A DNA stretch of 62,054 bases, counting the filler, from Platydemus manokwari (Eukaryota), in NCBI GenBank assembly GCA_037951405.1. It is 6 parts of 6 records of this genome, joined end to end, with 100 filler letters (N's around TTAATTAATTAA, not from the genome) between each part and the next. Parts side by side here need not be neighbours in the genome. Positions count along the whole stretch, not along the records: positions 40,122 to 52,277 come from JBBMOY010282226.1; 5 more parts are not named here. One strand, written 5' to 3'. How positions within the stretch are numbered: position 1 is the stretch's first letter; each line of letters starts with the position of its first letter. This document shows positions 43,570-43,715 of this stretch, piece by piece. The notes under the pieces are model-generated. The model saw nothing but the letters and a program-made list of their open reading frames with translations. It had not been told where the DNA came from and did not search any database. The position numbers and the translations under genes were made by a program.

Positions 43570-43715
43570 GCTGAGAAGGACCATGCTAATCTTGACGCTA
43601 GTCCAAACAGGAAAAAAACATAAAAAACAAGCATTTAATAAAATTTTAAAGTCGAGGTGAGGGATTCTCCCACCGCCTCGTGAAGACCAATATTTATGTT
43701 AAATAAATATTAGAA
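43570..43715 (+). ncRNA. Conserved structured RNA motif, copy A (immediately 5' of retrotransposon ORF1)
   Basis: Three hairpins shared with 52005-52150, with compensatory base changes. Function unknown. Confidence 0.55.

Follow-up and report, generated by a model that had tools for sequence, protein, structure and literature searches.

A repeated structured RNA motif of Platydemus manokwari is probably the 3′-terminal recognition structure of an R2-superfamily retrotransposon

A structured RNA motif that occurs twice in DNA of the flatworm Platydemus manokwari is most likely a retrotransposon 3′ end, of a known kind but absent from Rfam. It probably makes up the terminal ~145 nt, up to the poly(T), of an R2-superfamily element and, by analogy with R2, would be the fold that the element's reverse transcriptase (RT) binds to start TPRT. 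The motif lies on a contig that occupies positions 40122-52277 of the window, the 62,054-nt stretch of DNA analyzed here, which consists of contigs joined by N-linkers (Table 1). The original prediction placed the motif directly upstream of ORF1 and offered four functions for it. The best fit among these is an RT-recognition signal; a short non-autonomous element is possible, and a ribozyme and an IRES-like element are unsupported.

Table 1. Positions of the motif copies, the associated retrotransposon and its flanks, counted along the window
Feature	Position	Strand	Remarks
5′ flank, decayed LTR-retrotransposon RNase H-like fragment	43371..43496	-	RT_RNaseH_2 E 0.024, below cut-off
Motif copy 1, likely sibling element's 3′ end	43574..43713	+	Hairpin 1 43578-43604, A-rich linker; GC stem 43653-43680, then GTGAAGACC; AU hairpin 43689-43711, AATAAA at 43702-43707; TAG 43711-43713
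T-rich tail of copy 1, (ATTTTT)x6.2	43715..43752	+	ORF1 ATG at 43755
ORF1	43755..46046	+	N/Q/P-rich; two C2H2-like Cys/His clusters C-terminal; stop TGA
In-frame TGA CTA between ORF1 and ORF2	46044..46049	+	Likely readthrough signal
ORF2	46047..49400	+	Ulp1/C48 protease (H64-D81-C131), reverse transcriptase, CCHC, PD-(D/E)xK endonuclease motif
Likely long 3′ UTR	49401..52005	+	98-nt-period tandem array 49574-50851; C>G bias
Motif copy 2, 3′-terminal structured module	52006..52149	+	Hairpin 1 52010-52036, GC stem 52088-52115, AU hairpin, CTAG 52146-52149
T16 tail	52150..52165	+	Sole T-run of at least 13 on either strand of the window
3′ flank, mariner transposase catalytic-domain fragment	52166..52276	+	SETMAR E 4e-6, Mos1 E 2e-4

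The repeated structured motif is confirmed as real. Its two copies lie ~8.4 kb apart, as originally described, and align between 43574-43731 and 52006-52165 with 74.5% identity over ~160 nt (E 2e-21). Searches of the window with blastn (next match E 0.17) and with a covariance model gave no third copy. The model, built from two copies only, recovered just these training copies when run over the window and over L001 and L002, two related metagenome loci. Identity varies along the motif, from 16/27 in hairpin 1 and 30/46 in the linker to 33/38 in the core and 20/25 in hairpin 3 with its TAG. The claim that hairpin 1 keeps its pairing despite a changed stem holds, with two compensatory pairs. So does the description of a 41-nt GC-rich core with 36/41 identical letters, whose stem differs by one A-U to G-C pair and whose loop differs by three changes. 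Hairpin 3 has one compensatory and one one-sided change between the copies. The fold obtained from either copy alone keeps 24 of its 26 pairs in the other, four of them compensatory. When the same 25 substitutions were placed at random, four compensatory changes were reached in 0.14-0.22% of 20,000 trials, a P of about 0.002 that refers to a simple null and to segments picked post hoc. A shuffle control for covariation, on an alignment of two rows only, was not significant (83/500). Folding stability is concentrated in the core with hairpin 3 (z -4.4 and -1.9), compared to -2.1 and -0.95 for the whole motif and weak values of -0.8 and -1.3 for hairpin 1 alone. One predicted detail fits less well: closure of the core by GTC/GAC with a TGAA bulge appears in no predicted fold, and it needs C43653, which the CGAGG/CCTCG stem also needs, so both cannot be complete. 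No pseudoknot of loop 1 with at least 4 bp is kept in both copies, and only four 3-bp pairings are common to them. The conserved single strands are GGAAAAA after hairpin 1 and GUGAAGACC after the core.

Rfam returned nothing credible, either over the window at gathering score or up to E 10 around each copy; a match to a known family, which the original prediction had named as a refuter, was thus not found. The core pattern had 0 matches in metagenome and viral contigs. Conservation of a protein-coding sequence is ruled out, since the copies differ by 3- and 1-nt gaps and no ORF of at least 150 aa covers copy 2. A host multicopy target gene (snRNA, SL RNA, tRNA or rRNA) was also rejected, on the lack of an Rfam or ARAGORN match and on the unlike flanks.

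Copy 2 reveals to which end of an element the motif belongs. It sits 2.6 kb behind ORF2, and the mariner fragment on its right opens mid-motif (PDLAP..., YSPDLAP-type) at the base right after T16, with the contig ending at 52277. T16 belongs to the left side because a DNA-transposon ORF has no such tail, and reading it as the poly(A) of a minus-strand element to the right is ruled out by the plus-strand mariner ORF found there. Where CTAG-T16 meets mariner, a retroposed insertion has its 3′ junction. Because copy 2 ends at this junction behind ORF2, and because planarian LIN elements end alike, we regard the motif as the element's 3′ terminus, which is also the location of R2-type template-recognition RNAs. 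In the termini printed in PMC4640811 (S6 Fig), LIN9_SM ends in ctag and a T-run, LIN24_SM in an A/T-rich stretch and poly(T), and LIN26_SM in tgttaaaataaa...ttag and poly(T) or poly(A); the ends of LIN15_SM and LIN25_SM have no T tail.

This junction bears directly on the framing of the motif as a 5′ leader, which would be a new self-cleaving ribozyme or an IRES, with copy 2 beginning another element. Copy 1 does directly precede ORF1, and R2, L1Tc, RTE and other elements have 5′ HDV-like ribozymes (PMC6765202). However, copy 2 is followed by T16 and an interrupted mariner transposase and not by a new ORF1, related planarian elements end in such sequence at their published 3′ termini (PMC4640811), and the T-rich tract, taken earlier as part of the leader, is most likely the element's 3′ tail. 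Together with the lack of an Rfam match and of any sense-strand descriptor fit, this makes a 5′ leader highly improbable. The descriptors were relaxed. The one for an HDV-like core (nested double pseudoknot, C-rich L3, J4/2 catalytic C), run with no positive control, gave 0 plus-strand fits in either copy, and minus-strand fits occurred in copy 1 only, at the shuffle rate (8 and 2 of 60). Hammerhead (CUGANGA..GAAA) and twister L4 cores, for which one mismatch was tolerated, had 0 matches in the two copies on either strand, and near neither copy was a match to the Rfam models of pistol, hatchet and twister-sister listed up to E 10. The earlier failure to fit HDV-like, hammerhead, twister or pistol consensus is reproduced, by descriptors for the first three and by Rfam for pistol. 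Helitron 3′ ends consist of a hairpin and CTAG. A Helitron end was considered and fits the motif less well, as copy 1 is without CTAG and LIN termini explain the end better.

Judged by its encoded domains, the element that probably ends in copy 2 is an R2-superfamily (Ulp1-RT-CCHC-RLE) non-LTR retrotransposon. ORF2 matches RVT_1 (E 3.5e-27) and, N-terminal to the RT, Peptidase_C48 (25.4 bits against a cut-off of 20.7), with a catalytic triad as in PMC4640811 (S5 Fig). The motifs CxxC-x8-H-x4-C and RPD..D.K were read from the translation and are conserved in relatives, zf-RVT scored below cut-off (E 5e-4), and a profile search of ORF2 gave no match to an APE-family domain. The features of the R2 superfamily and NeSL clade, namely an RT, CCHC and RLE without APE, and Ulp1 before the RT, were thus all found. 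A Pfam search of ORF1 gave no match. The closest relatives of ORF2 are Ulp1-RT proteins with 32-44% identity, and in a tree it groups with four Ulp1-RT proteins lacking family names (support 99/99). No named LIN/R5 protein is among the 40 and 25 ORF2 matches listed, and a placement in the R5/LIN lineage is tentative. Related loci number two in metagenomes and none in viral or prokaryote collections; L001 starts inside ORF1 and ends 116 nt after the ORF2 stop, thereby including neither element end, and L002 is a fragment. Three longer single-ORF relatives of 1526-1541 aa (P0165, P0167 and P0168) carry a Ulp1-like domain at the N-terminus, and the extended stretch behind it resembles, by eye, decayed repeats of that domain.

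A compositional bias extends from ORF1 to copy 2. C exceeds G in each of the 28 300-nt bins that span 43600-51999, compared to a longest run of 8 elsewhere, and this continuity suggests one unit. The skew does not mark the element's ends, both flanks also being C>G. Between ORF2 and the contig end there is no other candidate 3′ end. The tandem array in the likely 3′ UTR extends over ~1.3 kb, and its sense strand contains 261 C but just 4 G.

Several other features of the window were recorded. A decayed relative of the same family, comprising the end of ORF1 and the start of Ulp1, lies on another contig (57119-57776, +), and tblastn found further RT fragments 31-42% identical to ORF2 at 32441-32853 (-) and 23624-23740 (-; E 0.16). 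A host gene for a CARM1-type arginine methyltransferase, on a contig other than the motif's (8974-10350, -), has trematode proteins as best named matches (63-66%) and two unnamed proteins at 88-92%, which identifies the host as a flatworm; the AT-rich DNA would suggest a planarian. A TIR-domain ORF at 26532-28412 (+) has weak SAM matches and is partly duplicated 3.1 kb downstream, and a 136-nt tandem repeat at 58296-58619 has ~2.4 copies that are 96% alike.

Copy 1 likely derives from a sibling subfamily, as a truncated 3′ end that came to be placed before ORF1. Homology between the copies starts sharply 4 nt before hairpin 1, with none upstream of 43574/52006. No target-site duplication was found beyond the T-runs, and the flanks are unlike, with an LTR-element fragment on the left and mariner on the right. 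Such mismatched flanks do not indicate a single clean insertion and call for either a deletion or, across the tandem array, a misjoin; NeSL insertions have been reported with target deletions (PMC3636483). The left flank is part of a decayed LTR-retrotransposon pol fragment (43000-43500, -) whose family has many diverged copies in X1, the single sequencing run with the region, which may be the window's own source. No RNA run with the region was listed, a result that has no bearing on expression.

Reads from X1 were analyzed on the copy 1/ORF1 side. Summed depth reached 4710 in the core bin (8368 at 43667) compared to 41-144 in most ORF1 bins, with the single contigs listed at a depth of 11-21; depth in this run is not copy number. 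The hairpin-1 bin, at 81, was no deeper than ORF1. Past 43686, 24 X1 contigs depart from the core and continue into a similar ending, TTTATG..AAATAAA..TTTT; four enter the core from an A-rich linker, and none of those listed bridges copy 1 to ORF1. This pattern fits the presence of many sibling 3′ ends, which are a known result of 5′ truncation (PMC13580325).

The very high core depth would also be expected if both copies were SINE-like insertions that share the 3′ end of a LIN-type LINE and are mobilized by LINEs, neither being the end of the long element. The sharp upstream limit of homology and the mismatched flanks would suit such insertions as well. On the other hand, they lack a tRNA, 5S or 7SL head (ARAGORN 0 genes, Rfam 0), the C>G bias is continuous from ORF1 to copy 2, and ORF2 is followed by no other 3′ end candidate. 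We consider SINE-like insertions unlikely; even then, the motif's job would still be RT recognition.

Alternatively, the motif could stand at both ends of the element by design, as a diverged terminal direct repeat, with the 3′ copy serving as RT handle and the 5′ copy providing a promoter, a processing site or a translation leader to ORF1, which otherwise lacks a 5′ UTR. The ORF1 ATG lies 3 nt behind the tail of copy 1, the homology begins sharply next to hairpin 1, and the X1 depth of the hairpin-1 bin is about that of ORF1, all of which would agree with a repeat of this kind. Yet only a single locus shows it, the 25% difference between the copies exceeds what is expected of repeats copied together, no ribozyme core fits, and the 5′ boundaries of LIN9_SM and LIN15_SM are without such a repeat in the 50-65 letters printed in PMC4640811. 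We therefore doubt that the repetition is by design. An elaborated pseudo-LTR design, in which the 3′ module would be the RT handle, the diverged 5′ module would start or excise the transcript (possibly as a new self-cleaving class) and UGA-CUA would fuse the ORFs, is quite unlikely.

If the motif is a 3′-terminal RT-recognition structure, as we favor, the encoded protein would nick a T-rich site, the U tail of the RNA would pair with the A-rich primer of the nicked strand, and cDNA would start at the tail. The three hairpins and the conserved single strands between them would then be the likely binding site, by analogy with R2. Because cDNA would start at the tail, truncated copies would keep the motif end and the motif would outnumber ORF1. 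The position of copy 1 could have arisen in two ways: the long element may have inserted into copy 1's T tail, or the RT may have jumped onto the 3′ end of a sibling RNA after finishing the long template. R2 RT is capable of template jumping.

ORF1 and ORF2 are likely joined by stop-codon readthrough, as the sequence around their junction suggests. ORF1 encodes a zinc-finger protein in the same frame as the Ulp1-RT-RLE protein of ORF2, and the TGA-CTA junction is present in all three cases seen, namely this element, the decayed relative (57406-57411) and L001 (762-768, TGA CTAG), whose ORF2 is 33-34% identical to the one described here. UGA-CUA(G) promotes readthrough (PMC4132726). ORF2 has its first Met at residue 211, beyond the catalytic triad of the protease. 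In each of the six closest relatives the called start lies no more than ~40 residues from the same point, and P0169, a more distant relative, combines zinc fingers and Ulp1 in a single ORF. A competing possibility is non-AUG initiation of ORF2, which has been noted for R2 (PMC13580325). A literature search of titles and abstract starts, with the original R5 paper outside its scope, returned no paper describing readthrough in an R2-superfamily element. Likely readthrough in such an element may be a less expected point than the structured 3′ end. Template selection by a structured 3′ end is known from R2 and underlies the gene-insertion tools built on R2. A compact module of this sort in a different, poly(U)-tailed RLE lineage would add an RT-template pair and an Rfam family, both new, and would introduce no new principle.

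The element and its motif resemble several known systems in part. The 5′ HDV-like ribozymes of R2, L1Tc and RTE (PMC6765202) are likewise structured RNAs beside a non-LTR ORF, a likeness that applies to copy 1 only, but they lie at the opposite end of the element, and no nested double pseudoknot fits either sense-strand copy. NeSL and Utopia-1_TSP (PMC4640811) share the Ulp1-like protease before the RT, the zinc fingers, CCHC and RLE. LIN9, LIN24, LIN26 and R5 (R5/LIN lineage, NeSL clade) share the flatworm host, the RLE type and insertions into other transposons; LIN26 copies are also found inside Polinton, piggyBac and GLT4 repeats (PMC4640811). R5/LIN elements insert in 28S rDNA or tRNA genes, whereas the 3′ flank here is mariner, and Rfam and ARAGORN detected no rRNA or tRNA in the window. 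In LIN9, LIN24 and LIN26, a sense-strand poly(T) tail follows a (T)AG or A/T-rich end, as T16 does here at 52150. By eye, 16 of the last 21 letters of copy 1 (tgttaaataaa...ttag, ahead of its T-rich tail) match those of LIN26, in AT-rich sequence, and LIN9 has GGTG-A-N10-CACC as in the motif core, which may be chance. The GC core is not recognizable in the ~55 terminal letters printed for LIN/R5 elements, and the parts of PMC4640811 on which we draw describe no 3′ structure for them. The closest functional parallel is the 3′ UTR of R2, which binds the protein and positions the RNA for TPRT (PMC13580325). In birds and turtles, R2 retains a compact fold at its terminus despite divergent sequence (bioRxiv 2024.11.11.623112). 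The motif is like this avian/testudine pseudoknot-hinge-stem module in being a compact 3′-end structure, in having a GGAAAA-like single strand between stems and, as far as two copies indicate, in keeping its pairing under divergent sequence (bioRxiv 2024.11.11.623112, PMC13580325). It differs from A-clade R2 in consisting of three separate hairpins in place of the pseudoknot-hinge-stem fold, and from R2 more broadly in that R2 has rRNA pairing, while the element described here has a poly(U) tail and belongs to another protein lineage.
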